Origin: a virus
Virus record (IMG/VR): IMGVR_UViG_3300038455_000036
Span: 6,038-70,037 of that record
Reading direction: 5' to 3' (one strand)
DNA: 64,000 nt
Shown here: piece after piece, positions 1 to 63,809 of the stretch
How the letters are laid out: each line of letters starts with the position of its first letter
Position numbering within the stretch: the stretch's first letter is position 1
Position numbers and translations under genes: made by a program
The notes under the pieces: model-generated
The model's database searches: none
Seen by the model: only the letters and a program-made list of their open reading frames with translations
What the model was told of the DNA's origin: nothing

Positions 1-401
1 TTACATCAAAAGAAAACAAAATACCAGATAACACTACTGGAAAAAGACCGGATGTAAATTTTTGTAAATCTACTTCAAAGCAAGTAAAAATCTTAAAACA
101 ATATTTTGAAAATGATAAAAATGACAGTTTGAAAAATGATGATCTAGCAAATAACAAACTAGATGGAAAAAATTTATTGATTGAATTTCTAAAATTTATA
201 GACGAAAATTCTGTCAATGAAAAAATTCCTAAAGCATCTTTAATCGAAAATCATTTAGGAATCAGAAAACCTAAGCGACTTGAATTAAGTAACTGGGCAA
301 AAGAAAAAGATATATTAATTCCAATGCCTGATAATAGCTACAAGTTAAATGTCAATGTAGATATGAGTGAAATTATTGAAGAGATTGAGAAAGGGGAGTA
401 A
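1..401 (+). CDS. Hypothetical protein, probably the 3' part of a gene starting left of the window (neighbouring element)
   Basis: The ORF track gives 129-401 from a TTG. The upstream sequence looks coding, so the true start is probably outside the window. Confidence 0.4.
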   Translation, partial: TSKENKIPDNTTGKRPDVNFCKSTSKQVKILKQYFENDKNDSLKNDDLANNKLDGKNLLIEFLKFIDENSVNEKIPKASLIENHLGIRKPKRLELSNWAKEKDILIPMPDNSYKLNVNVDMSEIIEEIEKGE

Positions 402-521
402 ATAATGGATTTATTTAAAGACTTAAATGCAGTAGAACAGCTTTTAAAAGGCAATGACAAACCTGCAAAGCGTAAATTAAAAAATAAGATCAAGAAGCGA
501 ATTATAAACAAAATTTCCAAA

Positions 522-556
522 TAACCCTTCGGGGTTATTTTTTTGTGGTAAAATAA
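522..556 (+). repeat. 35-bp terminator/promoter block, identical copy at 60743-60777
   Basis: TAACCC-TTCG-GGGTTA hairpin, T7 run, then TGGTAAAAT (extended -10-like). Both copies are followed by a GAGGTG RBS and ATG. Confidence 0.85.
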
Positions 557-763
557 AAACGAGGTGAAAATTTATGGTATATCCAAATTTTCTAGGCAAT
601 AAGTGTCAAACAAGTAAAAATGTTATAATACCAAAATCAAATATAATTTGGGAAGTGAAAAATACGAAGATGAATGCATGGAAGAAACATCAACATACTT
701 CCACACATCACTTGATAGCTTGTTTGATGATATCAAGAAAAGAATAAAGGAGTTGGATTAACT

Positions 764-931
764 ATGGCGTGTAAATGTGCAATAAAAACAGATGAATGGC
801 ATGGCTGGGAATGTGATATAACTGGTGGAGCTTGTATGTATTTAATTCCCGACTCTAAACAATGTGCAAAAGATTTTAACGAGGGGCCAGATGCTGTTTT
901 TCCAAATGAGGTGCAAGATGGAAAAATATAA
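764..931 (+). CDS. Small Cys-rich phage protein (55 aa, MACKCAIKTDEWHGWEC...)
   Basis: AAAGGAG RBS, ATG at 764, TAA at 929-931; read manually because it is below the ORF-track cutoff. Confidence 0.55.
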   Translation: MACKCAIKTDEWHGWECDITGGACMYLIPDSKQCAKDFNEGPDAVFPNEVQDGKI

Positions 932-979
932 AAAGCCAAAATCATATCCAGTATACCCAAGGACTAAAAATTGTCCCAA

Positions 980-1040
980 CTTTGCCATTTAAATCAATTC
1001 TGTGTGTTTTGAGAATAAAATTTTTTATGCTAAAATAAAT
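980..1040 (+). promoter_or_regulatory. 61-bp promoter block upstream of cas12f, identical copy at 63241-63301
   Basis: 61/61 identity by eye; contains TTGAGA-N16-TAAAAT with a TG extension. Confidence 0.8.
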
Positions 1041-1051
1041 TAAAAACGGAG

Positions 1052-2311
1052 TTGAAAATTATGGAATTAACTAAAGTAATGAAATTTGAAATATATTCAG
1101 AAAATAAGGAAATATATAAATTATTGCATGAGTTAATGTTTGAGACAAGGAAAATACAGAATAAAACTATTATGGCTATGTATGAATGGAGTGATTTTAA
1201 ATTTGCTTATAAAGAAAAACATGGAGTATATCCAAGGCCTGACGAAATACTAGAGAAGAAAAATAAAAAACAATTTTACGGAACTATACAAGGTTATATT
1301 GATTATTTTGCTAGAGAAATATTTTATAAAAATATGAGTGGTAATAGCAGTAATGCAATACAATCAGCAGTAAAATTATTCAATGACAAAGAAAAAGAAA
1401 TGCAAAAATGCATATGTACTTTGCCGTATTACCGCACTAGTAATCGTATTTTTTTAAAAAAATGTAATTTTAAACTTTACAAGCATGATAATAAATATTA
1501 TATTGATATTGGTCTTTTATCGACTAAATATAAAAATGAATTAGAATTAGATTCTGGAAGAGTTATTTTTAATATGAAGATTGGCGATAACACACAAAGA
1601 ACTATTATTAAAAGGGTATTAGATGGCGAATATTCAATAGCAGAAAGTCAATTAATTTATAATAAAAGACTAAAAAAATTCTTTATATATTTGTCATACA
1701 GTTTTAATCAGAAAGTTTTTGCGAAATGTGATAATATATTAGGAATTGACTTAGGTATTAAATACCCTTTATACATAGCATTAAAAGATAGTTTAAAAAG
1801 ATGGAAGATAAACGGTGGAGAAATAGAGGCCTTTAGAAAACAGGTAGAAAAAAGAAGATATTTAATGCGAAAACAAAGATTAGTAGCGTCTAACAGGTCG
1901 AAAGGTCGAAATAAAATGTTAAAACCTGTTACTGATATAGGCGATAAAGTGGCACGTTTTAGAGATGCGATTAATCATAGATATTCTAAGTTTGTTATAG
2001 ACATTGCTAGAAAAAATAATGTAGACGAGATTGTGATGGAAAAACTAGAAGGAATAAGCAATAATAATTTATTCCTAAAAGATTGGAGTTACTACGATTT
2101 ACAGCAAAAAATAAAATATAAAGCTGAAATGGTAGGAATAAAAGTAACATTTATAAACCCTGCATATACAAGTCAAACATGTTCACATTGTGGCCATGTT
2201 GCCAAAGAAAATAGGCCAGAACAGGAAATATTTAAATGTCAATCATGTGAATTTGAAGAAAATGCGGATTATAATGCCGCTGTTAATATAGCTAATAAAA
2301 CTGTTGTTTAA
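1052..2311 (+). CDS. cas12f1: Miniature type V-F CRISPR effector, Cas12f1 (AsCas12f1/C2c10-like, TnpB-derived), 419 aa
   Basis: RuvC-I GIDLG, RuvC-II VMEKL, RuvC-III NADYNAA and CxxC..CxxC zinc finger all intact. Blocks EWSDFKFAYKEKHGVYP, GGEIEAFRKQVEKRR and WSYYDLQQKIKYKAE closely resemble AsCas12f1 as remembered. An array is adjacent. The true start may be ATG 1061. Confidence 0.88.
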   Translation: MKIMELTKVMKFEIYSENKEIYKLLHELMFETRKIQNKTIMAMYEWSDFKFAYKEKHGVYPRPDEILEKKNKKQFYGTIQGYIDYFAREIFYKNMSGNSSNAIQSAVKLFNDKEKEMQKCICTLPYYRTSNRIFLKKCNFKLYKHDNKYYIDIGLLSTKYKNELELDSGRVIFNMKIGDNTQRTIIKRVLDGEYSIAESQLIYNKRLKKFFIYLSYSFNQKVFAKCDNILGIDLGIKYPLYIALKDSLKRWKINGGEIEAFRKQVEKRRYLMRKQRLVASNRSKGRNKMLKPVTDIGDKVARFRDAINHRYSKFVIDIARKNNVDEIVMEKLEGISNNNLFLKDWSYYDLQQKIKYKAEMVGIKVTFINPAYTSQTCSHCGHVAKENRPEQEIFKCQSCEFEENADYNAAVNIANKTVV

Positions 2312-2319
2312 AAATTTAA

Positions 2320-2460
2320 TATGGGCAGACTCGGAGGCCTTAAGCTGAGATTTGTTATGAAAAATAGTTGGAAAAACTTATTAACAAAAACTCGGCAAGT
2401 CCTGATTATAGGACACCCCACGTGTGCGCGTGGTAAAGGTACGTATATTAAGAATGGCTT
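2320..2460 (+). ncRNA. Putative tracrRNA for Cas12f1
   Basis: Anti-repeat TAAAGGTACGTATATTAAG (2434-2452) matches the reverse complement of the repeat at 16/19. Hairpins at 2399-2414 and 2418-2433; long stem CTGAG/CTCGG plus TTTGTTA/TAACAAA (2345-2395). Ends are approximate. Confidence 0.75.
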
Positions 2461-2470
2461 AACGAGTAAG

Positions 2471-2745
2471 GTTTAAACTTGATATAAGTATGCTTAGAGG
2501 TATCAAGTTTTGTTTGCAGTGTTACTTGATATAAGTATGTTTAGAGGCTATTGTTATATACATAACTTCCCGTCGGTAATGATGTTTAAACTTAAAATAA
2601 GTACGTTTAGAGGTACATAGTTGTTTCATATCATCACCTATATTAATTCAGTTTAAACTTGATATAAGTATGTTTAGAGGTTACCAGTCAAAAAAAGAAA
2701 ATGGGAAAAAGTCTTGTTTAAACTTGATATAAGTACGTTTAGATG
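2471..2745 (+). CRISPR. Mini CRISPR array: five 30-nt repeats (consensus GTTTAAACTTGATATAAGTAYGTTTAGAGG) and four spacers (17, 36, 37, 35 nt)
   Basis: Repeats at 2471-2500, 2518-2547 (degenerate 5' end), 2584-2613, 2651-2680 and 2716-2745; possible decayed sixth repeat at 2767-2790. Confidence 0.92.
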
Positions 2746-2800
2746 GTAAAGCTCTTAATGTGTGTTGTTTAATCTTCAAAACGATTGAGGAAGTGTATTT

Positions 2801-3217
2801 ATGGGATTTAAAAAAATAAATGCCCAATATGAAATCGAAAAAAGAATAAAAGATGATGAAGAATTAAAAGAATGCTTAAGAGGAGGTTTTATGAGCAAAG
2901 AAGATATAAACATAAGTTTATGCAATATAATTTCCAAACTTGACAACATTGATACTCAACAAATAGAGATATTTGGACGATTAGATAAAATTGACATAAA
3001 ATTATACGAAATGAATTCAAAGCTAGATAAATTTGACGCAATATTAAGTCATGTTTTCGTAAAGAAAAAAGCAGAGGAAATAATATCGACTGATGATGAT
3101 AAAAATAATAAAATAGCACAATTGACTAAGGACATGGAAGATTTACAGAAGCAAGCTGATGGAATTATGTCTAAAAAAGTTAAGCTTAGAGAAGAATTGA
3201 ATAAATTATTGAAGTGA
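2801..3217 (+). CDS. Hypothetical coiled-coil protein
   Basis: 138-aa ORF with GAGG RBS and heptad pattern (LDKIDIKLYEMNSKLDKF). Confidence 0.6.
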   Translation: MGFKKINAQYEIEKRIKDDEELKECLRGGFMSKEDINISLCNIISKLDNIDTQQIEIFGRLDKIDIKLYEMNSKLDKFDAILSHVFVKKKAEEIISTDDDKNNKIAQLTKDMEDLQKQADGIMSKKVKLREELNKLLK

Positions 3218-3229
3218 AGTGATGTATTT

Positions 3230-3454
3230 ATGGGTACGTGGAAAGAATTAAAAAATTCAATTGACTCTATTTCTGACGAAGAAAAGAAGGAACTTGAAAT
3301 GATGGCTGATGAAATGAATAATAAATTAGGAGTTCCTTGGGAAGATGTAAAAAATGAATTATTAAAAGATTCTGAAACCTATAACGAATATAAAAAATTA
3401 GAACCTGAATATGGGATTATAAGAAAAATTATAAAGGCTAGAATATTTAAATAA
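3230..3454 (+). CDS. Small protein resembling HigA-type antitoxin N-termini, lacking the HTH
   Basis: VPWEDVKNELLKD..EYKKLEPEY.II..IIKARI is typical of the region preceding the XRE HTH in HigA-like antitoxins; the ORF stops there. Confidence 0.5.
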   Translation: MGTWKELKNSIDSISDEEKKELEMMADEMNNKLGVPWEDVKNELLKDSETYNEYKKLEPEYGIIRKIIKARIFK

Positions 3455-3478
3455 ATTTTAAAAAAATATAGTTTTATT

Positions 3479-3690
3479 TTTTGCATAAATTTTGCATAAG
3501 AAAACAGTGCAAAATTGTATTAAGTAGAATAAAATCACACCGTCAGGCGCATTGATATTACTGCAATGTGCCTATTTATCGTGTTCTATTCTGGTAAAAT
3601 ATAGCGAATTTCTAATCCGTTGGCCGGGGGTTCGAATCCCTTCAGGTACGCTAGATACAAGAAAAATCCGTTGAAAATTTGCATAAAAAT
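3479..3690 (+). repeat. Attachment-site direct repeat, left copy (attP-like junction)
   Basis: 212 bp matching 63789-64000 with 6 mismatches, all left of the core. TTGCATAA direct repeats (arm-type site candidates) lie on both sides of the core. Confidence 0.93.
3608..3650 (+). pseudogene. 3' half of tRNA-Arg(TCT), serving as the att core
   Basis: Anticodon loop TTTCTAA, TCCGT, T-arm GGGGG-TTCGAAT-CCCTT and acceptor strand CAGGTACG. No matching 5' acceptor strand or D-arm upstream. Confidence 0.85.
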
Positions 3691-3844
3691 TGCATACTAA
3701 AATTCAACAAACTTGATAAAAGTTACAGTATTTGATTAGCAGGACTAAATAAATTTTGTGCATAATCTGCATAAAGCAAAAATATTTAGTCCGTTGATTT
3801 GGATAAATATAACAAATAATTAAGTGAGGTAAAAGTCGATTTTG

Positions 3845-4200
3845 AAAATTGAATAATTATATATCTCTCGTTCGAAATTTGGTATCATGTACATGCCATT
3901 TTAATGATTTTCTTATAAATTTACTACTAAGTATAAAATACCTTTCTCGTTCGATAGAAGGCACGAATTAGACAAGTGATTTATATTGGCAAATTTTAGT
4001 TTAATTAAAAGATGTCAATTTTGTGTTTTGTTTTGTCTGATTAAAAATTGCTAAAATTATATTACTCTCGTTCGCAAAAATATATAATATTCGCACGAAA
4101 ATAAAATTTTCTTATAAATTTACCACTACATAAAAAATATGTCTCTCGTTTGCAAAAAGGCACTAATTAGAGAAGTAATATATATTAACAAAATATGTAT
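3845..4200. repeat. Degenerate ~199-bp tandem duplication with four TCTCGTTYG boxes
   Basis: TTTTCTTATAAATTTACYACTA...AAGGCACNAATTAGANAAGT occurs at about 3908-3987 and 4107-4186; CTCGTT boxes near 3867, 3947, 4067 and 4145. Confidence 0.7.
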
Positions 4201-4224
4201 TATATAAATTTTGCATATGTAAAG

Positions 4225-5331
4225 TTAATCTATGCTAAAATGCTTTATTTGCTCAATTCCAATTCCTTTTAAAGCCTTTTCCTGCAAGTCAGGTATCATA
4301 TGACTATAGGTATCAAGCGTTATTTTTACAGATGCATGACCTAGTCGTTCGCTTACAACTTTAGGATGTATATTGTTTCTCAATAACCACGTAGCGTGAT
4401 AATGTCTAAGAGACTTAAAAGAATAATTCTCATTCATCTCTAATTTTCGTATAATCTTTTTAAAAGTCTTGCTGATATTTTCCCCCTGCAATGGTGACCC
4501 ATCTTCATGCACCAATAAAAAATTATTTTCCTGCCAATTCAATCTATTTTTCATTTTATTTATTTGTCTTTGCTTCAAATACTCAATTATAGGCTTTTCA
4601 GTACCTTCTATCAATGGTATTTGTCTCTTACTTGTACGTGTTTTTAAATCGTCTAACTTGTAAACACCGTCTACACGCTGATACTGCATTCTTAAATTCA
4701 ATCTTTTATTCTTAATATCAAAATCCTCAACTTGTAACCCTGCTATTTCGCTCAATCTCATTCCGGTAATACTGCAAATATAAATCGCAATATAGCAAGA
4801 ATAATCTTTAGAAAGTTTTAATATCTCTCTCAATTCGTCGTCGCTTGGGATATATATTTCTGTATATGCTTTACTTGGTGGTGTAACAGCATAGCATGGG
4901 TTATACTTCAAATATTCATGCAATACAGCATGTTTAAAAGCTTCGCTAATTATACGATGTATTTGTAATACAGTAGTTGGAGATAATTCACCGCTACTAA
5001 CCTTGTCTATATAAAAACTGCTTATGTGTGCAGGTTTTAATTTAGACAATTTATGGTGTCCTAATTTTGGTATAACATGTAAATCTAATAATTCAAAATA
5101 TCTTTGCCGAGTACGTTCCGCAACAGATATATTAACGTACTCGTCATACCATTTAACAAGATATTCCTTTACAGTTATATCTCTATCAACAGCATGTAAA
5201 CTTTTTTCTTTGTATTCAATAGCCGCCGCTTCTGCTTCTTTTCTGCTTTTAAAACCGCTCAAATATACTTGATTACCGTCTTCATCATAAAATCTTATTG
5301 CTATTCCTTTTTTTAATTTTATAATCTGCAT
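4225..5331 (-). CDS. int: Phage tyrosine integrase
   Basis: TGMRLSEI, KSLRHYHAT, RLGHAS..TLDTYSH catalytic motifs; SAM-like N-terminal domain; adjacent to att. Confidence 0.95.
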   Translation of the reverse strand: MQIIKLKKGIAIRFYDEDGNQVYLSGFKSRKEAEAAAIEYKEKSLHAVDRDITVKEYLVKWYDEYVNISVAERTRQRYFELLDLHVIPKLGHHKLSKLKPAHISSFYIDKVSSGELSPTTVLQIHRIISEAFKHAVLHEYLKYNPCYAVTPPSKAYTEIYIPSDDELREILKLSKDYSCYIAIYICSITGMRLSEIAGLQVEDFDIKNKRLNLRMQYQRVDGVYKLDDLKTRTSKRQIPLIEGTEKPIIEYLKQRQINKMKNRLNWQENNFLLVHEDGSPLQGENISKTFKKIIRKLEMNENYSFKSLRHYHATWLLRNNIHPKVVSERLGHASVKITLDTYSHMIPDLQEKALKGIGIEQIKHFSID

Positions 5332-5736
5332 TTATTTCCCTCATTTCGTTATTAATGTATTAAATTTGTATATTTTTATAATAAAACGTCATGTTTTAGT
5401 AATAAAAATATTGTGTTTTAATGCATTTATTGTCCATTTAGACCATTATTTTTACCGTTCAAGTAGAGATTTTTACCATTCATCACTAAATTGTGTAATT
5501 GTCGATAAAAATATAAATTTAATATAAAATGCTAAATATTATTAGTATAATTAATATCTAACGATATTGGAGGTGTAATTATGAGTATATTTGCCAAAGA
5601 TTTAAAATTAATTAATGAAAATTTAAGCAATTTTGATGATACTTGTAAGAAAATATCAAAAATAATATCATTTATAATAATTGATAAAAATAAATGTTTT
5701 AATAATAAAAATTTTGAAAGTGACAAATCAGAAGAT

Positions 5737-6060
5737 CTATTGTTGTTGAAGTTTTCTGATTAATTCTTTAATCAGATCTAAGTCATCAACGTTTATATCT
5801 TTTAGTTTGCTTTTATCTATAGCTACATAATGCATAGTTTCTTTACTATCTGATTTTGACGTTAAATAATCTAAAGTACATTCGAATATATCAGATAATA
5901 CAATTAACTTTTCAATATCTGGTTCACGTGTTCCGTTTTCGTACCCAGATATAGCATTTCTAGTTATACCTAAAGCTTTGCCCAACTCTTCTTGTGTCAT
6001 TTTTTTCTCTTCTCTTAATTGTTTCAATCTTTTTCCAAATAACTTTCTATCAAAACTCAT
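5737..6060 (-). CDS. XRE-family HTH prophage repressor (CI-like)
   Basis: LKQLREEKKMTQEELGKALGITRNAISGYENG; divergent from the Cro-like gene. Confidence 0.9.
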   Translation of the reverse strand: MSFDRKLFGKRLKQLREEKKMTQEELGKALGITRNAISGYENGTREPDIEKLIVLSDIFECTLDYLTSKSDSKETMHYVAIDKSKLKDINVDDLDLIKELIRKLQQQ

Positions 6061-6162
6061 AACATGTAATCCTCCGAAAATATATCAGCTTAATTGTACT
6101 ATAATTAATATTTTTTTTGCACGATTGTAAACAAAAAGTTTTTTAAATTTTTCAAAAAGTTA

Positions 6163-6217
6163 TTGACTGTTAACAAAACGTGGCGTATAATAAAAATATA
6201 CAGTAACGAAAAGTTAC
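6163..6217 (+). promoter_or_regulatory. Rightward lytic promoter and operator
   Basis: TTGACT-N17-TATAAT (6163-6191); palindrome GTAAC-N5-GTTAC (6203-6217). Confidence 0.75.
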
Positions 6218-6249
6218 TAAAACTAATTTAACTTTCAAGGGGTGATATT

Positions 6250-6465
6250 ATGAATTATACTACTAGAATAAAGACTTTTATGGCATTAAACAAAATAGAT
6301 CAAGATGAAATGGCAAAAAAGTTGGGTATATCTAGAACCGCATTTAATCAAAAACTCAATAGGAATGGTTCAAAATTATTCAATATTGACGAAGCAATAA
6401 GGATATCAGAGATTCTAAACGTTACATTAGACCAAATTTTTTTGCTTGAGAAGGTAACGATTTGA
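6250..6465 (+). CDS. Cro-like HTH regulator
   Basis: QDEMAKKLGISRTAFNQKLN; position in the genetic switch. Confidence 0.85.
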   Translation: MNYTTRIKTFMALNKIDQDEMAKKLGISRTAFNQKLNRNGSKLFNIDEAIRISEILNVTLDQIFLLEKVTI

Positions 6466-6485
6466 TACTATTGGAGGGTAACTAA

Positions 6486-6743
6486 GTGAGTACAGAATTT
6501 TTAGACGCAGCTCAAGCAGCTGAAATGTTAAATCTAAAAAATAAAAGAGCTGTATTAAATGCCTGGAACAGTGGACAAATACCAGGAACTAAGATTAACA
6601 ATAGATACATTGTATCTAGAAAACAGCTAATAGAACACATCGAAAAAATATCGCTAAACAATTATAGAGAGCCTATTAATTATGGGAACTCAAATTACTA
6701 CATGAGAGTAGCAAAACGGAAGAAGGTTAAGCGAATGGGATAG
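6486..6743 (+). CDS. Excisionase-like HTH_17 protein
   Basis: FLDAAQAAEML...GQIPGTKINNRYIVSR pattern. Confidence 0.75.
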   Translation: MSTEFLDAAQAAEMLNLKNKRAVLNAWNSGQIPGTKINNRYIVSRKQLIEHIEKISLNNYREPINYGNSNYYMRVAKRKKVKRMG

Positions 6744-6945
6744 CTAAATGTAAAAAACTCCGTTCCCTCAAACGAAGTTTTTAGCAATAAATATTAAAAT
6801 AATTTGATTTGAATTTTAGAACAACGACCAAACATCTTTATTAACTACTTTTATGGAACGACTAGAACTGCAACTCAATCTAATCATACTATATTTTTCT
6901 ATTAATTTCAAGATTGAGTTTAAAATTTAATATAAAAATTCGGAG

Positions 6946-7194
6946 GTGATTACATTGAGTAATAGACTTAATGTTAGTTACATCAAATTTATAGTTAGAA
7001 ATGTTACTGCAACACTTAGTCACGAGGGATTAAAGCCCAGTGAATCAGCAGTAACAATAAATAGACAATTTCTTGAGGGGAAGATTACGAGTAAAGAAGC
7101 AATAGACAAAATAAAAATGATTTACATTGGGGGTAAAAGTAATGGCAGACCAAATAAAAAAAATAGAATACAAGTATTTTCAAGTACCAAATGA
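6946..7194 (+). CDS. VbhA-family antitoxin-like protein (no Fic partner seen)
   Basis: NVTATLSHEGLKPS...FLEGKITSKEAI contains the (S/T)xxxE(G/N) inhibitory motif. Confidence 0.7.
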   Translation: MITLSNRLNVSYIKFIVRNVTATLSHEGLKPSESAVTINRQFLEGKITSKEAIDKIKMIYIGGKSNGRPNKKNRIQVFSSTK

Positions 7195-8164
7195 CATATT
7201 TGAACTAAGTTTAAAACCTATTGAAATAGCTGTTTATATGTATCTTGTACGATGTGGAAATAATTCAACTGCATTTCCTAGCTATTCAACAATTGGTAAA
7301 AAAGTAAGTATATCTAGGGATTGTGCCATTAATACAGTTAAAAAATTAATAGAAAAAAAACTAGTAATCAAACATGAAAGAACAAAGGATATTAAGAAAA
7401 AGAAGGATCAAAAAATTGTTGCTATTCATGATAGTAATATCTATGAGGTCGTTGTAAATCTTGATAGTTTAGTCGTTGAGAACGACCAGGGTGGTAATCC
7501 TCAACGACTAGGGGTAGTCGTTGAGAACGACCAGGGTGGTAATCCTCAACGACTAGGGGTAGTCGTTGAGAACGACCAGGGTGGTAATCCTCAACGACTA
7601 GGGGTAGTCGTTGAGAACGACCCTAAGAATAACTATATTAAAAAGAACTATGAAGAAGAACTAAAAGAAGAAGAACTATTTAAGAATATTTCTTCTTCGC
7701 AACAAAAAAATGAACCTGATAATCAACAATCTTTTTCTGTTGAATCAAAAGATTCAACGAGCAAAGAAGATAAGCCCAAGAAACCAAAGAAAGTTACTAT
7801 TTTTAGTCCTGAATCAGTTGAGTTAAGAGCAAGTAAATATTTATTTGAGAAAATGTGTGAGAATAATCCCAATGCAAAAGTTCCGGATTTCCAAAAGTGG
7901 GCAGATTATATAAGGCTTATGATTGAGCAAGATAAAAGAGATCCAAAATTAATTGCAAAAGTAATTGAGTTTAGTCAAAAAGATGATTTCTGGAAAGCAA
8001 ATATTTTAAGTACTAAGAAACTGAGAGAAAAATATGAACAACTTTATTTAAAAATGAATAGTCAGGTACCACAAAATAATAAAAAGTCTGAATTAGACAA
8101 AATGAAAAATGTTTATGAAATGGCAAAAAAGCTAGATGAAGAAAGAAAAAGGAGGAATATGTAA
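7127..8164 (+). CDS. Phage replication initiator (N-terminal wHTH, internal iterons)
   Basis: AFPSYSTIGKKVSISR HTH; C-terminal DDFWKANILSTKKLREKY. Likely start ATG 7142. Confidence 0.88.
   Translation: MGVKVMADQIKKIEYKYFQVPNDIFELSLKPIEIAVYMYLVRCGNNSTAFPSYSTIGKKVSISRDCAINTVKKLIEKKLVIKHERTKDIKKKKDQKIVAIHDSNIYEVVVNLDSLVVENDQGGNPQRLGVVVENDQGGNPQRLGVVVENDQGGNPQRLGVVVENDPKNNYIKKNYEEELKEEELFKNISSSQQKNEPDNQQSFSVESKDSTSKEDKPKKPKKVTIFSPESVELRASKYLFEKMCENNPNAKVPDFQKWADYIRLMIEQDKRDPKLIAKVIEFSQKDDFWKANILSTKKLREKYEQLYLKMNSQVPQNNKKSELDKMKNVYEMAKKLDEERKRRNM
7470..7622. repeat. Replication-origin iterons: 3.4 x 45-bp perfect tandem repeat inside the initiator gene
   Basis: TAGTCGTTGAGAACGACCAGGGTGGTAATCCTCAACGACTAGGGG at 7470, 7515 and 7560, partial at 7605. 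Each unit contains the inverted repeat TAGTCGTTGAG/CTCAACGACTA. Confidence 0.9.
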
Positions 8165-8846
8165 TATGGATTATGCAGAAGCGAGCTTATTTTTAGCTCA
8201 AATGAAATCAATATACCCAAAATATTATTCAGATAGAACAGAAGAAGAATTACTTGCCGATTCTGTTACTTGGGGTGATTTGCTTTATGATATGGCATAT
8301 GACGAGGCAAAAGATTATTTATTTAGATATGCAAGTATAAATAAATGGCCGCCAAGTCCTGCTGATATAAGAGAAGAAAAAACGAAAATATCAAACAATT
8401 TACTTTCTGATGGCGAAGCCTGGCTAATGGCTAAAAGATTAACTAGAGCAAATTGGCGAGGACCTGGTGTAAAAGTTGAAATGAAATATTTAGATGCTGA
8501 TGAATTAACAATAAAAGCATGGAGAATATTAGGAATGGAAAGTATAGCAATGTCAGAAAATGAAGATGTAACTAGAAGTAACTTTTTAAATATCTATAGG
8601 ACTATGGAAAAAAGAGAAAGAGAGGAATTATCCATACCTAAAGAATTGAGAATAGAAGCAATGAAACAAAAATATTTATCCGAACAGCAAGAAATTAAAT
8701 TATTAGAAGAAAAAGAGAAACAAAAATTATTACAAGATACATTAATTAAGGCAAGCGAAGAAATAAGTAAATGTAATATAAGTGATGACGAGAAAATAGA
8801 AATACTAAAGAATTTTAAAACAAAATTAAAAGCCGGTATTCGCTAA
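8136..8846 (+). CDS. Replicative helicase loader/inhibitor (G39P-like)
   Basis: Follows the initiator; W.DLL.D..Y...KWPPSPADIRE motif. Likely start ATG 8166. Confidence 0.7.
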   Translation: MKKEKGGICNMDYAEASLFLAQMKSIYPKYYSDRTEEELLADSVTWGDLLYDMAYDEAKDYLFRYASINKWPPSPADIREEKTKISNNLLSDGEAWLMAKRLTRANWRGPGVKVEMKYLDADELTIKAWRILGMESIAMSENEDVTRSNFLNIYRTMEKREREELSIPKELRIEAMKQKYLSEQQEIKLLEEKEKQKLLQDTLIKASEEISKCNISDDEKIEILKNFKTKLKAGIR

Positions 8847-8940
8847 AGTAACCGGCAACTAAAATATTTTGAAATTTTAAGTTACACACATTATAGCACA
8901 AAAAGTGCTTGGTGTGTAGGAAAATATTGGAGGATAACAC

Positions 8941-9398
8941 ATGAAAACAATACTAGATGTTTGTTGTGGTAGCAGAATGTTTTACTACGACAAAGAAAAT
9001 GAAAATACTATATATATGGATAATAGAGAGTTTGAAGATATTTTGTGTGATGGCCGAAAATTAGAAATTAAACCTGATATAGTAGCAGATTTTAGGAATA
9101 TACCGTTTGGAGACAATACTTTTAAATTAGTGGTCTTTGACCCTCCACATTTGGTCAAGGTTGGAGAAAAAAGTTGGTTGGCCAAAAAATATGGAAGATT
9201 AAATCAAGATACCTGGCAGGATGATCTTAAAAAGGGGTTTAACGAATGCATGAGAGTTCTTGAAAAAAGCGGGATATTGTCTTTAAGTGGAATGAAGAAC
9301 AAATCAAACTTGGACAAATACTTAAAATTTTTAATAAAAATCCGCTCTTTGGAAATAAGAGAGCGAAAACACATTGGTTATTATTTTACAAAGATTAG
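8941..9398 (+). pseudogene. SAM-dependent (DNA amino-) methyltransferase with a frameshift near 9279
   Basis: ILDVCCGSRMF and VVFDPPH motifs. The family C-terminus VFKWNEEQIKL...PLFGNKRAKTHWLLF continues in the -1 frame to TAG 9396-9398. Confidence 0.85.
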
Positions 9399-9416
9399 GG
9401 AAAATGGAGGTTTGAC

Positions 9417-9758
9417 ATGAAAAATTTATATAAGTGGGAATTGAAAATCAGGACTGGAGAGTTAACGAAAGAAATTAAAGAGGATGTAACAGTTGCTAAT
9501 AAGACAGAAATTGTAAGAAGAAAAGAAAGAGCATATGATTTGAAATATCGCACTAATGTTCGTGTAAAGGACTTAAATATATATATTCAGTCAATAAGAA
9601 ATGATAAAATAGAGTATTTTTCTTTAAGTGATGATATCAATATTGAAACAATGAAGGATATGGCTTGCGAGCAACTTGTTAAAGAAAGAGAAGAACTAGA
9701 AAAAATGATTGCTTATAAACAGCAAATTATTCACAAGATAATGAAATTGGAGGTTTGA
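9417..9758 (+). CDS. Hypothetical phage protein
   Basis: GGAGG RBS, 113 aa, in operon. Confidence 0.6.
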   Translation: MKNLYKWELKIRTGELTKEIKEDVTVANKTEIVRRKERAYDLKYRTNVRVKDLNIYIQSIRNDKIEYFSLSDDINIETMKDMACEQLVKEREELEKMIAYKQQIIHKIMKLEV

Positions 9759-9759
9759 A

Positions 9760-9987
9760 ATGAAAGCAAAAGAAAAAATACCAGTTAAAAACAACTTAAG
9801 AAAATATAGAATATGGAAAAACATAACACAAGAGGACTTGGCAAGTGATTTGAAAATTTCAATCAGTCAAGTACGGTTAATCGAATGTCACAGTAAATAT
9901 CCCAAGTATCAAATTAGGTCAAGAATGTGTGTTTATTTTGGGGTGAGTATGAGACAAATGTTTTACGTTGAGGAGGGGATGAAATGA
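9760..9987 (+). CDS. XRE-family HTH protein
   Basis: NNLRKYRIWKNITQEDLASDLKIS. Confidence 0.8.
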   Translation: MKAKEKIPVKNNLRKYRIWKNITQEDLASDLKISISQVRLIECHSKYPKYQIRSRMCVYFGVSMRQMFYVEEGMK

Positions 9988-10117
9988 AACTTATTAGAAT
10001 GTTTAGGGAATTAATACACGAAAGAAATGAGTTACTTTCTTTCGTGACAAAAAGTGAATTGATGGAAATAATAAAGGACTATAAAAAATTGTTAAAAAAG
10101 GGAATGGAGGAATAGAA

Positions 10118-10459
10118 ATGAGAAGGCATCAAAGACCTACAGCAATAAACCGTATGTCTGTAGGGCAATTAAAACTAAAAGAATCAGAGATAAAAAATCA
10201 GATTAAAGCATATTTGCGTTATACAGGGTGGTTTACATTTCCTATACTGCAAGGATTGGGAGTACATAAGGGTATTAGCGATATGATAGCAATAAGGAAC
10301 GGTATTGTAATTTTTATTGAGGTAAAAACAGAGAACGGAAAACAATCACAAGATCAAAAACAGTTTGAATATGACATTGTTACACAGATGGGAAATTATT
10401 GTTTGGCGAGAAGTATTGAGGATGTGCAGGAATATATTAAAAATATTGAGGAGGAATGA
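10118..10459 (+). CDS. VRR-NUC domain nuclease (Holliday-junction resolvase-like)
   Basis: KGISDMIAI..G..IFIEVKTENGKQSQDQK, a PD-(D/E)xK motif. Confidence 0.85.
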   Translation: MRRHQRPTAINRMSVGQLKLKESEIKNQIKAYLRYTGWFTFPILQGLGVHKGISDMIAIRNGIVIFIEVKTENGKQSQDQKQFEYDIVTQMGNYCLARSIEDVQEYIKNIEEE

Positions 10460-13282: not shown

Positions 13283-14106
13283 TAAAATATGTTTATATAT
13301 GCAATTATAGCACTTACAATATTTACGATTGGTGTTATTACAGGAATAAGAATAAAAAATAATAGAATGGCATATGGTGTTATTAATTTAGCTGAAATAA
13401 GGAGTAAAGAAAGGGATGATATTTACAAATGAAGAATGATTTTGATAATGATTTTTTTAAATTAGTTATTACAATATTTTGTTTAATTGTTTTTCTTTGT
13501 ATAATACTTGGAATATTGGCTAAGATTTTAGGAGCATAAAAAGTGAGGTGAGAAGATGAAATATAAAGATACTTTTATAAGATATTATTTTTTAAATCCG
13601 CTAATTGGAATTCGTGACAACATTCTTGTAAAATTAAATTATTGGTGGTGTGATGATTGCGGAAAATATCATTCATCAAGGGTTAAACATTACTGGAATC
13701 AAGACAGTTTGACATGTGTTGAAGAAAATGAGAAACTATCAAATTTTAATTTTAAATTTATGAAAGTGAGGTGATTTTGTGAGTGGTGGACATCTTGAGA
13801 TTATTTTTAAAACTAATAACAGTCAAGTAAAATATGTTTTTAAAGATGAAGAACTAAGAGAGTACTTTGAGAAATTAATATATGATAAGATGATTGATTT
13901 AGAGGGGTATAAAAGGTTAAGATTACAAGATGTCGTAAAAGTAAGAGGATAGATAATATAAAAAAATAAATAGAGAGAAATAAAAGGGTGAAATTGAATT
14001 GGAACAGTTAAGACAATAAAGACAAATCTATACAATTTATGTAAATATATAGTGTAGATTTGTTTTGTTATGTTCAAAAAACTACACAAAAGTATAATAT
14101 AACATT

Positions 14107-53889: not shown

Positions 53890-54524
53890 CAATCTTATTA
53901 AGTATATATAATATAAATATAATAAAAAATAAATTTATTTATCATTTGTAGATAATTATGACAAACAAAAACTTGATTATCCCAAGCCTTTCATTGAGAT
54001 AAAATCGAGTTTTTGTTTTTGTTGACATTATTGCCAATATAAATTATTATCTTTGTAATAACAATCTAAACTTTAGTTTTGACTAACCAAAACAAAACTA
54101 GCCCCGTTAACTTCCTAGCAACTTGCTAGGTTTATTTTTTTTGCCTAAAAAGGTTGACTCGATTAACATAATATGTTAATGTAACTGAGTATCTTTAGTT
54201 GTAATTACAACTTATGTTTTCTGATATAAAGTAATTTTATTTTAAATATATAATTTATATGACAAATGTTGTAATGTTGGCGTAGAAATTATATATTTTT
54301 TATATGCAGAGATGCAACATAAAAAAACTGTTAAATACTTTAAAGGCTGGCATGTCCATACGTTAAAATCATTCTACCCTTATGCTAGCCTTATTTTTTT
54401 ATTGACAATTCTCAAAATATTCAATACAATTTTTGTGATATTATTAAAGCAATTATTTAATTTAAAAAATCATAGACCAATAAAAAAATAACCACTGGCC
54501 TTATATCACCAGTGGTTATTTTTT
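53886..54524 (+). ncRNA. Four tandem promoter-terminator units without ORFs (putative sRNA cluster)
   Basis: TTGACA/TTGACT at 53886, 54022, 54154 and 54402 with -10-like boxes; hairpin plus T-run ending near 54020, 54142, 54400 and 54524. Confidence 0.55.
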
Positions 54525-54627
54525 AACCGTATATTAATTTCCCGATAAAAACACAAAATATAATTCAATAATTTTAACCAAAAGAAAAAGAATAAATTTA
54601 TATTATCACTATTTTGTTGTTTGTCAA

Positions 54628-55182
54628 TTACTTAACATAAGTTCCTTGAACTCCACGTTTTTGTCTATTATTAGTCCTCTTCCTTAACCACATCAACGAT
54701 TCTTCTAATTTAGTTATAGCACAAGCATTTTCACGACATCTAAAATCGCTATTCTGAAAATTTTCAAGTCTGTTTATGCATATTGCAATAAGGTCTTCCA
54801 TAAAGATTCCGTTTAATCCTGTTTCTTTAATAGCACCTTCTTGAAAGTGTACTCCACATAAAATATCACCTTCGATACCTCTAATAATATAGTTATGAGG
54901 TGAATTAAAAGTATTGTTATCATGCTCAATGAATGTATTATCTGTTGTTATAAGATCACTCTTTATCGTTTTTAAATCTAATCCTGATTCGATATTAAGT
55001 TTCTTATAAGCTTTTTCAAACATTATCTTAGGGCTCCATGAAACATAGTTATCAGAATATCTTACTTTGTATCCTTCCATATCTTCAATTGTATTATCTG
55101 TTTTACCATATTTCTCAATTTCAAAAGTTTTCTTACTCATTTTTTCTGCTTCAATCATTTTTGTGCCTATGTATATATCCAT
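54628..55182 (-). CDS. tad1: Tad1-family anti-defence sponge with an extra N-terminal domain
   Basis: PHNY...FQEGAIKETGLNG..MEDLI.I...RL..FQ.S.F.CRENACAITKLEE.LMWL.KRT..R..RGV.GT matches the Tad1 signature. AAGGAG RBS precedes ATG 55182. Confidence 0.85.
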   Translation of the reverse strand: MDIYIGTKMIEAEKMSKKTFEIEKYGKTDNTIEDMEGYKVRYSDNYVSWSPKIMFEKAYKKLNIESGLDLKTIKSDLITTDNTFIEHDNNTFNSPHNYIIRGIEGDILCGVHFQEGAIKETGLNGIFMEDLIAICINRLENFQNSDFRCRENACAITKLEESLMWLRKRTNNRQKRGVQGTYVK

Positions 55183-55238
55183 TTCAATCTCCTTTAAATT
55201 TAATATAGCAACCATTTTAATTTTCTAAAAATTATTTG

Positions 55239-55715
55239 TCAAATAATAATAAGTTTTGATTTACAATTATTAACCATTTGCCTAATTTCTTCTTGAGAAT
55301 ATTCTTTCCCACTCAATTTTACATTATGTTCAACACATGCCCCAGGTTCCGTAAATTGCATTCCATCATCAGCTTCCCATACTCTCACTGTTTTTACTCC
55401 ACATTTAAAACATACTCTACGCCATTTTTCCTCAGTTGTATGCCCATCCCAATTTTTCTCAATCTGTGGCAAATCCCCAATATTGAAATCATCAGGAATA
55501 TGAAAACAATACTTACCTCTTTCAAGTGATATAACCCTTTTCCATCCATCAGTATCATAATACCAGCCAGATTCTTTCATACTCCCATATATTTCTTTGC
55601 TATGTAATTCATTCATCACATTTGCCAATAGCAACACTAACATATTTCTTTCCCAATATGCACCTTTAACTTGTTCTTCACAACTCATTCCTTCTTCGTA
55701 TACGTATATATCCAT
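55239..55715 (-). CDS. WDGH-motif domain protein
   Basis: AYWERNML...FHIP...NWDGHTTEEKWRR. Confidence 0.6.
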   Translation of the reverse strand: MDIYVYEEGMSCEEQVKGAYWERNMLVLLLANVMNELHSKEIYGSMKESGWYYDTDGWKRVISLERGKYCFHIPDDFNIGDLPQIEKNWDGHTTEEKWRRVCFKCGVKTVRVWEADDGMQFTEPGACVEHNVKLSGKEYSQEEIRQMVNNCKSKLIII

Positions 55716-55846
55716 TTATCAATCATCTCCCAATAATATTTTAAACAATTCCTTTAACGACCTAACTTTATATTTATTTTTAATCTTAGTCCATAAATTT
55801 CTATTGACTTTCAATTTTACAGTTTGTTCAAACCATGTAAATTTAA

Positions 55847-56230
55847 TTATTTTCCCTCCTTTATTGATTTTATATATAGTTCCGCTTCTTTTTTGGTTGT
55901 AAATTCTTTAACATCTTTAGGTATTCTTAATATATAATGCTCGCTGTCATAATTTATATCTTTAATCCCACTTCTATACATTGCATTATTTATATCAATA
56001 CCTTCTAATAAGTGTATTTCGTTTGATTCATAATACCCCGTTTGTTCTTCTGTATCTATTTTACAGACATAATACATTATCTTATTTTTATAACAATCAG
56101 GACATAAGTCAACTCCCTTGTATCTTAACTTTCCACATTTACATTTTAATTTTCCATTCTTTCCCCCAAGTATTTTAAACTTCTTTTCAGTATTCTTGTA
56201 AAATAAACTTGGTACACCTGTGTAATTCAT
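55847..56230 (-). CDS. Hypothetical zinc-finger protein
   Basis: CKCG...CPDC; AAGGAG RBS. Confidence 0.55.
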   Translation of the reverse strand: MNYTGVPSLFYKNTEKKFKILGGKNGKLKCKCGKLRYKGVDLCPDCYKNKIMYYVCKIDTEEQTGYYESNEIHLLEGIDINNAMYRSGIKDINYDSEHYILRIPKDVKEFTTKKEAELYIKSIKEGK

Positions 56231-56531
56231 TTTATTTATTCTCCTTTAAATAAATTTAAATAAAATTATCCCAAACTTTAATAAAAAAATCCACAAAAAT
56301 TTTAATACATTTTTTCTTGCTAATATTAAAATCACATTTCAATCAATCTCAATAAATTTATGTCGAGCAAGAAACTAAAATTTTTTAGCAAAACTCAAAC
56401 CTATATTTATTTTAAAAATATATTTGCTAAGTATGGTTTAAGCTGAAATAATTTTTCATTTGACAGTATGCTGGCATAGTGGTATAATTATATTTGTAAG
56501 GTAAATATTTTTTTGAAGGAGGGAGGAAAGT

Positions 56532-56690
56532 ATGGCAAAAATTACAATACCAATAAGCGAAATTAGTCATAATAACCTAAGAGAAATAAGTTACCTAACA
56601 AGAAAATCAATAAACAAGATTGTCAATGAAGTTTTAGAAACTTATTTACCTGACTACTTGAAAAGAGTAAAAGAAGAAAAGAAAGATTAA
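56532..56690 (+). CDS. Small ribbon-helix-helix regulator (52 aa)
   Basis: MAKITIPISEISHNNLREISYLTRKSINKIVNEVL; GGAGG RBS; TTGACA-N17-TATAAT at about 56460-56488; read manually. Confidence 0.7.
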   Translation: MAKITIPISEISHNNLREISYLTRKSINKIVNEVLETYLPDYLKRVKEEKKD

Positions 56691-56855
56691 ATTAAAGGGA
56701 TAGCACCACGCACCGCCTAAAGTAAATGGCACTATCCAAGTAACAACACCATAGGATATTGTTATGCATATAATTATAATATATCCCTCTGGTGTGAGTA
56801 AACAAGAATGTTTGTTTGTACTTTGAAAAATAAATAAAAACCAGGGGGAATTTTA

Positions 56856-58001
56856 ATGAAAAAATTTACAATTTTACATTTTAGTTTGTTAAGTTTGTCC
56901 TTACTATATAGTTTTATATTTTACAGTTCTATTGCAATAGAACTTGCAATAATGGCTATAATATTCGACTTAGTAAAACCAAGTATGTTTATTACAGCCT
57001 TACAAAGTAAAGGTATAAAGCGAAATGTATTTGGAATATTAGTTATAATCTTAGTTTCCTTCAATCTTCTTGCTATATCAAGCAGTTTTATAAACAAATA
57101 TAATAAAGAATCTTCTACTAAAACACTAAATAGCGAATATACAAAACAACAAGATAAATTAAAACAACTAAAATCAAATATTATAAGTATTGAGACTGAA
57201 TTAAATAGTTATCCAACACTAGAAGCATTTACATCAAAGTCTCCTAAATGGGAAGATAAAACACAGTTAAATCAAACTTGGCAGGACGGAAAGAAGGATA
57301 TTAATAACAGATTAACGACAGCACAACAAGAATACAATAAAGAATTATCTAAGAAAATAGCTAAATACAATGTTGTAAATAAAGATAATGGATATAATGC
57401 AATATTTACGGCATTAAGCCAAAAGCTAAATGTTAAAACATCTAACTTAGTCCTAGTGATATATATTCTATTTGCGATAATGCTAGAAATACTTATCTTT
57501 TATACTAAAACATTAAGTGTAAAAGAGCAAAAAAACTATATCAAGTCTACCGATGAAATGACTGCTGATTTAATAAAAGAAATGAATTATCAATTGCATT
57601 TAAAGCAGTTACAGGCACTTAAAAATAGTTTTGATGAAAATGTTGTTGTTGCAGTAAAAGAAATTGTAGAGCAACCAAAAAAACAAGTATTTCAACAAAT
57701 ATCCGAGCCAGATCCAGAGATAGAAACAAAATTGATCGAAGCTGATCTACAAGAAAATAGATTTCGAAAAAAAGTTGTAGAAATTGAGAACATTAAAAAA
57801 TATCTTGAATATCTCTTAGAAAATTCTGAAAATGACATTGCAATAGGCTATAAAAAAGTAGCCGAGGGATTGGGACTTACAGAAAGTGAAGCTTTAAGGA
57901 TATTCGATAAATTAAAGAAAAAAGAATATTTAGAAACAGAGGGCAAGAAGACTTTTATAAAAAAAGAAGAGTTTAACGAAAGTGATTTTGAGGAGGTTTG
58001 A
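56856..58001 (+). CDS. Membrane protein with coiled coil and C-terminal winged helix
   Basis: 3-4 TM segments; IGYKKVAEGLGLTESEALRIFDKLKK. Confidence 0.65.
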   Translation: MKKFTILHFSLLSLSLLYSFIFYSSIAIELAIMAIIFDLVKPSMFITALQSKGIKRNVFGILVIILVSFNLLAISSSFINKYNKESSTKTLNSEYTKQQDKLKQLKSNIISIETELNSYPTLEAFTSKSPKWEDKTQLNQTWQDGKKDINNRLTTAQQEYNKELSKKIAKYNVVNKDNGYNAIFTALSQKLNVKTSNLVLVIYILFAIMLEILIFYTKTLSVKEQKNYIKSTDEMTADLIKEMNYQLHLKQLQALKNSFDENVVVAVKEIVEQPKKQVFQQISEPDPEIETKLIEADLQENRFRKKVVEIENIKKYLEYLLENSENDIAIGYKKVAEGLGLTESEALRIFDKLKKKEYLETEGKKTFIKKEEFNESDFEEV

Positions 58002-59559: not shown

Positions 59560-59870
59560 CAATTTTATTTAGGGAAGTAATCGGCTACATGTTAAATTAT
59601 TCCAACCTTGAAAGCCGCTAAAACAGCGACTTTATTTTTTAAAAATTTCGATTTGCTTTGGTCGAATTTTGGTGGCTGAATTGGTTGGTATGAGTGGAGC
59701 GAGTGGCAGTTTAATATTAGGGTTGTAATAAGTATATATTTATATAAATATATACTAGCGAGCGGGCGAGCTTTGAGCGAAGCGAAAAATTTTCGGACGA
59801 AGGACGATAAATTTTGAGTAAGTGATAAGACGAACGGGCGCACTAATAAACCCTGCTCAGGAGGTAAAAT

Positions 59871-60557: not shown

Positions 60558-60797
60558 GGAGGTTGATAAAATTGGCTAGTAAGTGGGACATAAAGAAAAA
60601 GAATAATGAATATTGGCAGATTACGCCAACACCAGAAGACGATATGTTGTGGCCTTGTGCAATGATTTTGATTGTATTATTTATTTATTTAAAATATCCA
60701 GTAGTATTTCAAATAGTGCAGGAATTTATAAATAAAATTTTTTAACCCTTCGGGGTTATTTTTTTGTGGTAAAATAATAAAATCGAGGTGAAAAATT

Positions 60798-62844: not shown

Positions 62845-62846
62845 AA

Positions 62847-62980: not shown

Positions 62981-62986
62981 AGCTCA

Positions 62987-63314: not shown

Positions 63315-63809
63315 ATGGATAAACAAATAAGTTTGATTGATACTGAACTAAGTAAGGATTTATTTATTCCAGTTAAAAATAGATTAGGATTAAATAAGCC
63401 AGAAGGTGGATTATGGTCTTGTCCATATACGCCAAACAATAAATATATTTCTGATTGGCACGAATTTTGTATGGAACAATTCCGGGATGGACTTAAAGAA
63501 AAAGCTGCAATATTCGACTTTAAATCAAATACTAGAATTTACACAGTAAATAGTCTACGAGATTTAAATGAATTATATATATCCTATGAACATAATGTCG
63601 GGGAATATGCGTTATTCAATACTTTAAACTATGAGGAATTATCAAAATATTTTGATATAATATATCTCACGCCAAAAGGACAGAGCGAAACAAGATTTAC
63701 TACGCCTGGATTATATGGATGGGACATAGAAAGTTGCCTAATTATGAATTTTGATTGCATAATGATAGACAAATATCTTGAAGATAAATTTTGCATAAAT
63801 TTTGCATAA
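63315..63809 (+). CDS. Hypothetical protein (KPxGGLWS...YGWDxES motifs)
   Basis: GAGGTG RBS after the shared 61-bp promoter; the stop codon lies inside the att arm. Confidence 0.7.
   Translation: MDKQISLIDTELSKDLFIPVKNRLGLNKPEGGLWSCPYTPNNKYISDWHEFCMEQFRDGLKEKAAIFDFKSNTRIYTVNSLRDLNELYISYEHNVGEYALFNTLNYEELSKYFDIIYLTPKGQSETRFTTPGLYGWDIESCLIMNFDCIMIDKYLEDKFCINFA

Follow-up and report, generated by a model that had tools for sequence, protein, structure and literature searches.

The DNA analysed here is a 64,000-nucleotide stretch (hereafter called the window), which corresponds to bases 6038-70037 of the 70,037-bp IMG/VR virus record IMGVR_UViG_3300038455_000036; this record is classed as linear and has a CheckV estimate of 85%. 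Close to its 5′ end, the window encodes a miniature type V-F1 CRISPR system, composed of a cas12f gene, a predicted trans-activating CRISPR RNA (tracrRNA) and a mini-array. The system is part of a cassette in a variable slot of a temperate phage genome. Its elements are as follows.

1052..2311, + strand: cas12f, type V-F1 (former V-U3); 419 aa from TTG 1052, with a likely start at ATG 1061 (416 aa)
2323..2470, + strand: predicted tracrRNA scaffold between the stop codon and the array; four helices, then a tail
2323-2328/2335-2340, + strand: helix 1; 4 of 6 pairs formed in the window
2330..2332, + strand: helix-1 loop triplet, predicted from loop-repeat covariation to form a pseudoknot with repeat positions 27-29 (2497-2499 in repeat 1)
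2344-2347/2393-2396, + strand: helix 2, enclosing a variable hairpin
2399-2404/2409-2414, + strand: helix 3
2418-2423/2428-2433, + strand: helix 4, with the tail after it
2435..2459, + strand: anti-repeat, part of the tracrRNA tail; predicted to form 19 pairs with nt 1-26 of the repeat (-12.3 kcal/mol)
2471..2745, + strand: CRISPR mini-array, five 30-nt repeats and four spacers, beginning 160 nt after the stop codon
2471-2500, 2518-2547, 2584-2613, 2651-2680 and 2716-2745, + strand: repeats, differing from the copy at 2651 at 1, 5, 3, 0 and 2 positions, respectively
2501-2517, + strand: first spacer, atypical, 17 nt
2548-2583 (36 nt), 2614-2650 (37 nt) and 2681-2715 (35 nt), + strand: regular spacers

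A first-pass annotation, made from the sequence alone, had described a 419-aa protein with a D-E-D triad and a zinc finger. The open reading frame (ORF) and both motifs are present, while the start is to be corrected: GGAG at 1048-1051 lies 9 nt before ATG 1061, which makes the 416-aa product more likely than the 419-aa one. The protein matches two PADLOC profiles over its full length, Cas12f (3.4e-113, residues 4-416) and Cas12u3 (1.4e-110), in addition to Pfam Cas12f1-like_TNB (1.8e-24) and NCBIfam guided_TnpB (1.9e-55). The closest PDB entries by sequence are five AsCas12f structures (1.3e-84 to 3.1e-83, residues 17-415), followed by OsCas12f and SpCas12f1, and the TnpB structure 8iaz reaches merely 8.3e-9. 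An AlphaFold2 model of the protein (mean predicted local distance difference test 84.3, predicted template-modelling score 0.65) has AsCas12f 8j12_A as its best Foldseek fold match (E 4.3e-41, 38% identity, TM about 0.5). Moreover, the split RuvC triad D233/E330/D406, R388 and the zinc-finger residues C377/C380/C396/C399 are all kept, and align with those of AsCas12f and its relatives. The features that define membership in type V-F1, namely a full-length Cas12f1 match of ~400-550 aa, the D-E-D triad, the CxxC..CxxC zinc finger and an adjacent array, are all found here, and we firmly assign the protein, on sequence grounds, as an AsCas12f-like type V-F1 (former V-U3) Cas12f1 effector. The effector is thus genuine by its PADLOC, PDB and fold matches; as for the new compact editor that was proposed, the protein is a further ortholog with 38% identity to AsCas12f.

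Profiles for Cas1, Cas2 and Y1 transposase, all of which were positive in control genomes, gave no match in the whole 70,037-bp record (Cas4 was not searched separately), in agreement with the earlier remark that no cas1, cas2 or IS200/IS605 transposase lies nearby. By the account of Karvelis et al. (PMC7229846), the lack of cas1 and cas2 is the norm for V-U3 systems in cellular genomes too. Accordingly, the missing adaptation genes are not special to the phage and call for no hypothesis of borrowing, and the idea that the module borrows host adaptation machinery finds no support.

Next, we investigated the region between the gene and the array, for which RNA structure had been proposed, by aligning window 2323-2470 with the equivalent stretch of seven related loci. 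Covariation in these 8 loci bears the proposal out: RNAalifold predicts four helices with 22 pairs, 9 of which show compensatory changes. The helix partners can pair in 90.5% of the alignment cells, as compared to 31-43% after a shift of the partners by 1-3 columns, and the covariation score of 0.451 (at most 0.135 when shifted) is reached by none of 500 shuffles. A covariance model built from the 8 loci was run on 67 sources (850,250 bases), and yielded 47 matches at E <=1, comprising the 8 training loci and 39 further matches. Thirty-six of these 39 lie within ~1 kb of a cas12f gene on the same strand, as do all 17 with E <=0.01, among them the match in the cultured Alicyclobacillus phage MMB025. 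The remaining three are weak matches away from cas12f, two in the window and one in locus L016.

How would the tracrRNA recognize the repeat? The tail pairs preferentially with the repeat of its own locus: the cognate pairing ranks 1 or 2 in 6 of 7 loci, and its summed energy is equalled in 25 of 5040 permutations, although two of the loci (L163 and L164) are close kin and hence not fully independent. The anti-repeat of the first-pass annotation therefore stands, supported by this cognate-versus-foreign pairing and not by the duplex energy. In addition, the helix-1 loop covaries with the 3′ part of the repeat. In the predicted pseudoknot, pair 10/181 occurs as C:G and as U:A in 3 loci each, and pair 8/183 as C:G in 5 loci and as U:A in 1; the sole locus that fails the loop-repeat pairing is misaligned by one column. 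Taken together, these RNA features place the RNAs on the + strand, with the repeat 5′ of the spacer. A tracrRNA predicted to pair with the repeat is thereby encoded between the gene and the array, as in type V-F1.

The five 30-nt repeats and the three regular spacers lie where they were first placed; the 17-nt first spacer had not been stressed. Its first ten bases (2501-2510) make a perfect 10-bp inverted repeat with 2475-2484 in repeat 1, to which they are exactly reverse-complementary, and a short first spacer of 21 nt is also found in the sister locus L003.

The record encodes a large terminase, a portal, a head protease and a tape measure protein, together with a DnaD-like or replication-initiator protein. 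The record is identified as that of a temperate siphovirus with a genome unit of ~60.3 kb, and the claim that a tracrRNA-type scaffold and a small array are borne on a phage holds. When the record is compared with itself, bases 1-9727 (arm B1, with cas12f) and 60541-70037 (arm B2) appear as mosaic versions of one region. In window terms, B1 consists of L002 plus window 1-3690, and B2 is window 54504-64000. The 61 bp just 5′ of cas12f are identical in both arms, several more blocks are 84-98% identical, and there are four homologous protein pairs. A 212-bp attachment arm, which includes ~42 nt from the 3′ end of a tRNA-Arg(UCU) gene (~3610-3651), is present twice, 60.3 kb apart, and no attachment core was found between the lysis genes and arm B2. 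The repeated attachment arm, the mosaic B1 and B2, and the lack of a core before B2 indicate that the record holds more than one unit of the ~60-kb genome; the accessory arm between the lysis genes and the phage attachment site (attP) was assembled in two versions. The features of this slot and its surroundings are listed below.

980..1040, + strand: 61-bp block, identical in both arms (= window 63241-63301)
1041..3478, + strand: cargo cassette, 2,438 bp, with cas12f, tracrRNA, array and two small ORFs, delimited by the comparison of the arms
2801..3217, + strand: 138-aa ORF in the cassette, helical; weak JetC-like match (E 0.0033), no family
3230..3454, + strand: 74-aa ORF in the cassette; no PADLOC-type or family matches
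3479..3690, + strand: attachment-site arm common to B1 and B2 (= 63789-64000, 97% identical)
4225..5331, - strand: phage tyrosine integrase, oriented towards the attachment site and adjoined by repressor-like genes
63315..63809, + strand: alternative cargo, a 164-aa ORF in arm B2 (phrog_8582, 1.8e-5; no informative family)

Located directly after the 61-bp block, the cassette is followed by the core of the tRNA-Arg attachment site at a distance of ~130 bp and by the integrase gene at ~750 bp. Its counterpart in B2 is ~487 bp long (63302-63788), after which both arms rejoin in the attachment arm. The best promoter-like site of the region, TTGAGA-16-TAAAAT with a TG (1009-1036), lies inside the 61-bp block, and promoter-like sites across the region are not enriched (22, as compared to 20.1 in shuffles).

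Both versions of the slot are found in one public wetland metagenome DNA run, which contains 97% of the sampled words of the stretch and whose contigs were placed on window 1-9000. A contig of 2,498 nt with a depth of 6.8 covers 1011-3508 and represents the cassette version. The cassette-less version is represented by the joint 1040->3479, which skips the 2438 bp (depth 35.3); another contig ends in 980-1040 (depth 27.4), and the contig 3479-7499 (depth 32.8) carries six B2-type differences at 3521-3563. The depth of the phage core, 38.4 (33-38), comes near to what both arm versions yield when added up, 6.8 plus 27.4. Such depths are coarse estimates, and the overlap of the cassette contig with its flanks is only 30 nt long. 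Nevertheless, a core depth near the sum of two unequal versions fits two phage variants better than a 1:1 tandem of two prophages, and the data fit two variants with a common core, in which about one genome in 5-6 carries the cassette. Contigs of the run also extend across the slot and the attachment site as far as the integrase. Loose contig ends at 3610 and 3641 resemble tRNA flanks, and a short contig differs at 2 of 37 letters; they may come from tRNA genes of other organisms and were not used.

Both arms contain a plasmid-like backbone, or one like that of an integrative and conjugative element (ICE), in common with the related loci L163 and L164: an HTH_36 protein, an FtsK/SpoIIIE ATPase and a small tyrosine recombinase. 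Arm B2 carries a 228-aa tyrosine-recombinase-like gene, and L164 additionally encodes a Rep3 plasmid initiator and an MT-A70 methylase. The backbone common to the arms, L163 and L164 indicates that the cassette travels with a plasmid- or ICE-like module, which is here part of a phage genome, and the phage may be a phage-plasmid hybrid. When the DNA of the attachment site plus integrase was compared with Clostridia, 81 of 399 scored genomes matched at <=95% identity, inside annotated tRNA-Arg genes. These matches cover the tRNA-Arg 3′ end only and point to no particular host. The tracrRNA-plus-array DNA gave no match in four genomes with Cas12f homologs.

We then examined the relatives of the effector. 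The protein search yielded 810 proteins at E <=0.001 among 3,327 candidates, the nearest being 84, 69, 68, 68 and 62% identical. The 16 nearest listed proteins (84% to 45% identity) come from metagenome sources only, and the first with an NCBI source is 42% identical. Further scans used an alignment of 22 sequences and found 176 relatives in IMG/VR, 225 in species-representative genomes (top identity 43%) and at least 383 in metagenome contigs; the best 80 were kept from each. A scan of IMG/VR with the single protein found no relatives, whereas the alignment-based scan did, and the region 900-2850 had no blastn match in the phage collection. A simple repeat finder detected an array beside the gene in 22 of the 26 loci examined, and a tolerant search detected two repeats in L005.

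The phylogeny called for in the first-pass annotation was built with IQ-TREE (quick, LG+G4, midpoint root) on 75 of 121 distinct full-length candidates, which comprise all viral and genome loci plus metagenome loci L163-L176; 46 candidates from L177-L242 were left out. The window falls in a clade of 8 with a Shimodaira-Hasegawa-like approximate likelihood-ratio support of 100 and a branch of 0.47. The other seven members are L003, L004, L005 and L006 from IMG/VR, and L163, L164 and L166 from metagenomes, and the clade contains none of the 46 cellular-genome rows. Among the tree rows, the window's clade is therefore limited to viral or unbinned metagenome contigs. The next row outside it is viral (L012), followed by a clade of 26 with 25 cellular-genome rows, mostly gut or rumen Clostridia, plus the viral L020; AsCas12f lies within a wider group of 56 rows. 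The viral labels are not clustered on the tree (13 changes, as compared to a shuffled mean of 14.8), indicating that phage carriage arose many times. Moreover, L005 and L006 within the clade, and L012 as the next-nearest viral locus, are virus records with direct terminal repeats and 100% estimated completeness. We found no paper on this particular clade in the literature, which is not proof that none exists.

Two members of the clade have altered catalytic residues, while their tracrRNA scaffolds are kept. L005 (7974-9254) has Asn in place of the RuvC-I Asp, and L004 (7992-9251) has Asn in place of the RuvC-III Asp and Ile in place of the conserved Arg. Judging from these substitutions, both proteins probably bind DNA without cutting it. 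Downstream of the L004 tracrRNA, 9390-9950 contains no regular array, and is occupied by a long run of irregularly spaced short TTGAAG-type units.

What do the arrays of the clade target? In the sister array of L164, 3 of the 14 spacers match the element family to which the array belongs. Spacer 14 (10290-10323) matches the FtsK-like gene of L164 itself (6371-6404) at 34 of 34 positions, spacer 13 (10224-10259) matches L164 761-796 at 33 of 36, and spacer 11 (10092-10127) matches both L164 5170-5205 and L163 1399-1434 at 32 of 36. The 5′ flanks of the self-matching copies in L164 have no common motif, as is expected if the resident copy escapes cutting. These self and kin matches hint at conflict among kin elements, and they are the only direct functional hint in the clade.

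The identity of the effector, the architecture of the locus, the conservation of the RNA, the restriction of the clade to mobile elements and the polymorphism of the cassette are established by the observations above. In our judgement, the cassette is likely to be a complete V-F1 CRISPR-Cas12f1 interference module, carried as a 2.4-kb cargo in a variable slot of the ~60-kb temperate siphovirus by a minority of its genomes. By analogy with the family, a Cas12f dimer with the tracrRNA and the CRISPR RNA (crRNA) would cut double-stranded DNA that matches a spacer and is flanked by a protospacer-adjacent motif (PAM). The module would thereby exclude competing mobile elements, such as phages and plasmid-like kin, from the lysogen or the infected cell.

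Several observations weigh against this reading. Four of the five repeats are not identical to the copy at 2651, the array opens with a truncated spacer, and the window alone among the 8 aligned loci has broken pairs in helix 1 (two). The anti-repeat gains no better duplex energy from its own repeat than from shuffled ones (window z 0.2; 0 of 7 loci significant). The public runs that contain the stretch comprise one DNA run and no RNA run, and the DNA run is possibly the source sample of the record and so not independent. The spacer search for targets and a PAM, which had been suggested at the outset, returned no protospacer: the three regular spacers match nothing in the 70-kb record itself, the rival arm included, nor in 50,697 INPHARED phage records or 72,556 PLSDB plasmids, and their exact 24-25-mers were not found in IMG/VR, where exact words miss mismatched targets. 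Spacer 1 of these three, with up to 3 mismatches, had no match in five related virus records, and the window spacers match no fetched locus and neither arm. As no target was found for them, competition between elements is inferred and not shown; for the window module, the inter-phage competition originally proposed is a reasonable inference from the kin loci, and not from its own array.

Among the rival explanations, it is conceivable but unlikely that the cassette is a decaying cargo, gained by recombination, no longer functional and now being lost. The mismatched repeats, the short first spacer and the two broken cells of helix 1, both of which belong to the window, would be marks of such decay, as would the depth of 6.8 against 27-35 for the alternative and the loss of catalytic residues in L005 and L004. 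However, the ORF is uninterrupted with every catalytic and zinc-binding residue kept, no breaks are found in helices 2-4, the pseudoknot triplet or the anti-repeat, and three spacers have regular lengths. We give about the same small weight to an active module that is not aimed at rival phages and instead acts on the host chromosome or defence islands, or regulates its own genes. The perfect match of L164 spacer 14 to its own FtsK-like gene and the existence of probably nuclease-dead relatives would agree with such a role, whereas the window spacers match nothing in their own record, and the intact nuclease residues fit cutting rather than binding alone.

Somewhat less probable still is that the cassette lies outside the phage, on a separate plasmid-like or integrative element or in a neighbouring tandem prophage, and was joined to it in assembly via shared repeats. 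Both ends of the record fall exactly on repeat boundaries, only 30 nt of the cassette contig overlap with its flanks, and the arms have the plasmid- or ICE-like backbone of L163 and L164, the latter with its Rep3 initiator. Against this stand the lack of an attachment core in the stretch from the lysis genes to the second arm, the core depth of 33-38 (approximately 6.8 plus 27.4), the unequal arms that argue against a 1:1 tandem, and the relatives inside complete virus genomes with terminal repeats. We regard as highly improbable that the gene is an IS200/IS605-type TnpB with an omega RNA, and thus part of a transposon and not of a CRISPR system. Such a gene would explain the weak Pfam OrfB_IS605 match (0.00027, below the cut-off) and the match to the general NCBIfam guided_TnpB family. 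This candidate is refuted by the five-repeat array with spacers, by the profile scores (full-length Cas12f/Cas12u3 matches of 1e-110 to 1e-113, as compared to 66.9 bits for IS200_TnpB, whose cut-off is 425), by the structure scores (8.3e-9 for 8iaz, 1.3e-84 for Cas12f1) and by the absence of Y1_Tnp from the record (transposon ends were not searched).

We retain the interference module as the preferred reading. A wider version of it is possible, though we advance it only tentatively: this Cas12f1 sub-clade may live only on mobile elements, as a promoter-anchored cassette that moves between the plasmid-like arms of temperate phages and plasmids. Its spacers would be directed against the FtsK-type backbone of kin, and the cassette would serve as a heritable incompatibility weapon, polymorphic in one phage population.

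A few further features lie elsewhere in the window. Two ~150-bp direct repeats, 73% identical (record 9879-10030 and 10078-10229), with recurring CTCTCGTTCG-like words, are located in window 3842-4192, between the attachment core and the integrase gene; as candidates, they may be arm-type binding sites of the integrase. A peptide is repeated in the 345-aa replication-initiator-like ORF, encoded at window 7470-7622 by exact tandem direct repeats of 63 bp (record 13507-13569 and 13597-13659). At 62925-63060, Rfam gives a tRNA match (34.5 bits) that extends over 136 nt; no tRNA is called by ARAGORN in any part of the window.

The locus is a further, well-documented example of a miniature V-F1 system carried by a temperate phage. 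The biology is unsurprising, as compact type V effectors on viruses and V-F systems on plasmids have already been reported. The points of interest are the exact boundaries of the cassette, the coexistence of both slot versions, the clade limited to mobile elements, and the relatives that target kin or are probably nuclease-dead. With exact boundaries and both slot versions in one sample, the cassette is usable for studying how phages gain and lose CRISPR modules. Moreover, compact orthologs whose tracrRNA scaffold is defined are available from the clade, among them the two natural variants that are probably nuclease-dead.

How does this module compare with known systems? Plasmid-borne CRISPR loci and viral mini-arrays likewise place short arrays on mobile elements, with spacers against kin elements as in the sister L164. 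Viral mini-arrays, however, use host Cas proteins and copy host repeats. The window module has its own effector and tracrRNA, and no array with a similar repeat was found in the phage or plasmid collections (genomes were not searched for the repeat), so that a viral mini-array exploiting host Cas was rejected as an explanation. The enrichment of V-F systems on plasmids and the targeting of related viruses by viral mini-arrays are described in PMC11656645.

Cas12j and Cas-lambda are not known to require a tracrRNA. The compact type V systems that viruses encode (Cas12j/CasPhi, Cas-lambda and the Cas12p ‘hacker’) resemble the window module in being phage-borne single effectors that have a small array, lack an adaptation module and are presumed to act against rivals (PMC12607003; bioRxiv 2025.01.20.633832). 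These effectors belong to other branches of Cas12, while that of the window is an ordinary Cas12f1. The Cas12p preprint concerns a different family (bioRxiv 2025.01.20.633832), and viral contigs from landfill carry effectors near V-F1/V-U3 according to PMC12607003. Full-length homologs annotated as transposase are also found in cultured phages, namely Alicyclobacillus phage MMB025 (L244, record 81738-83316) and Bacillus phage Mgbh1 (gp53, L243), distant in sequence at 34% identity (E 2e-59 and 6e-62). In MMB025, an annotated CRISPR adjoins the gene and the tracrRNA model matches at 45.9 bits, although the array and the tracrRNA lie upstream of the gene, unlike in the window. In Mgbh1, the feature table of the region lists no array (the DNA was not scanned for repeats), and the tracrRNA model has no match at E <=1.

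The closest known system is AsCas12f1 from Acidibacillus sulfuroxidans / Sulfoacidibacillus thermotolerans (8J12, 8DZJ, 7WJU), which the window effector resembles in size, full-length alignment, D-E-D triad and zinc finger. Both loci have the order cas12f, tracrRNA, array and lack adaptation genes. Their tracrRNAs have the same helix order, a UAAGCYGAG...CUCGGYAAG stem and a helix-1 loop complementary to the repeat 3′ end. In the native AsCas12f locus (L091, whose protein scores 962 bits with 8j12), the stem appears as UAAGCCGAG...CUCGGUAAG, with GUUC in the helix-1 loop and GAAC at the repeat end. The covariance model of the phage clade misses this locus with default filters and scores 7 bits with the filters off (E 0.1 in 601 bases); the likeness to the AsCas12f scaffold noted in the first-pass annotation is thus real but distant. 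The repeat and tail sequences of the two systems are unrelated. Finally, the As array is long (4390-5606 by the span of a naive finder) and chromosomal, whereas that of the window has four spacers and is carried on a phage.

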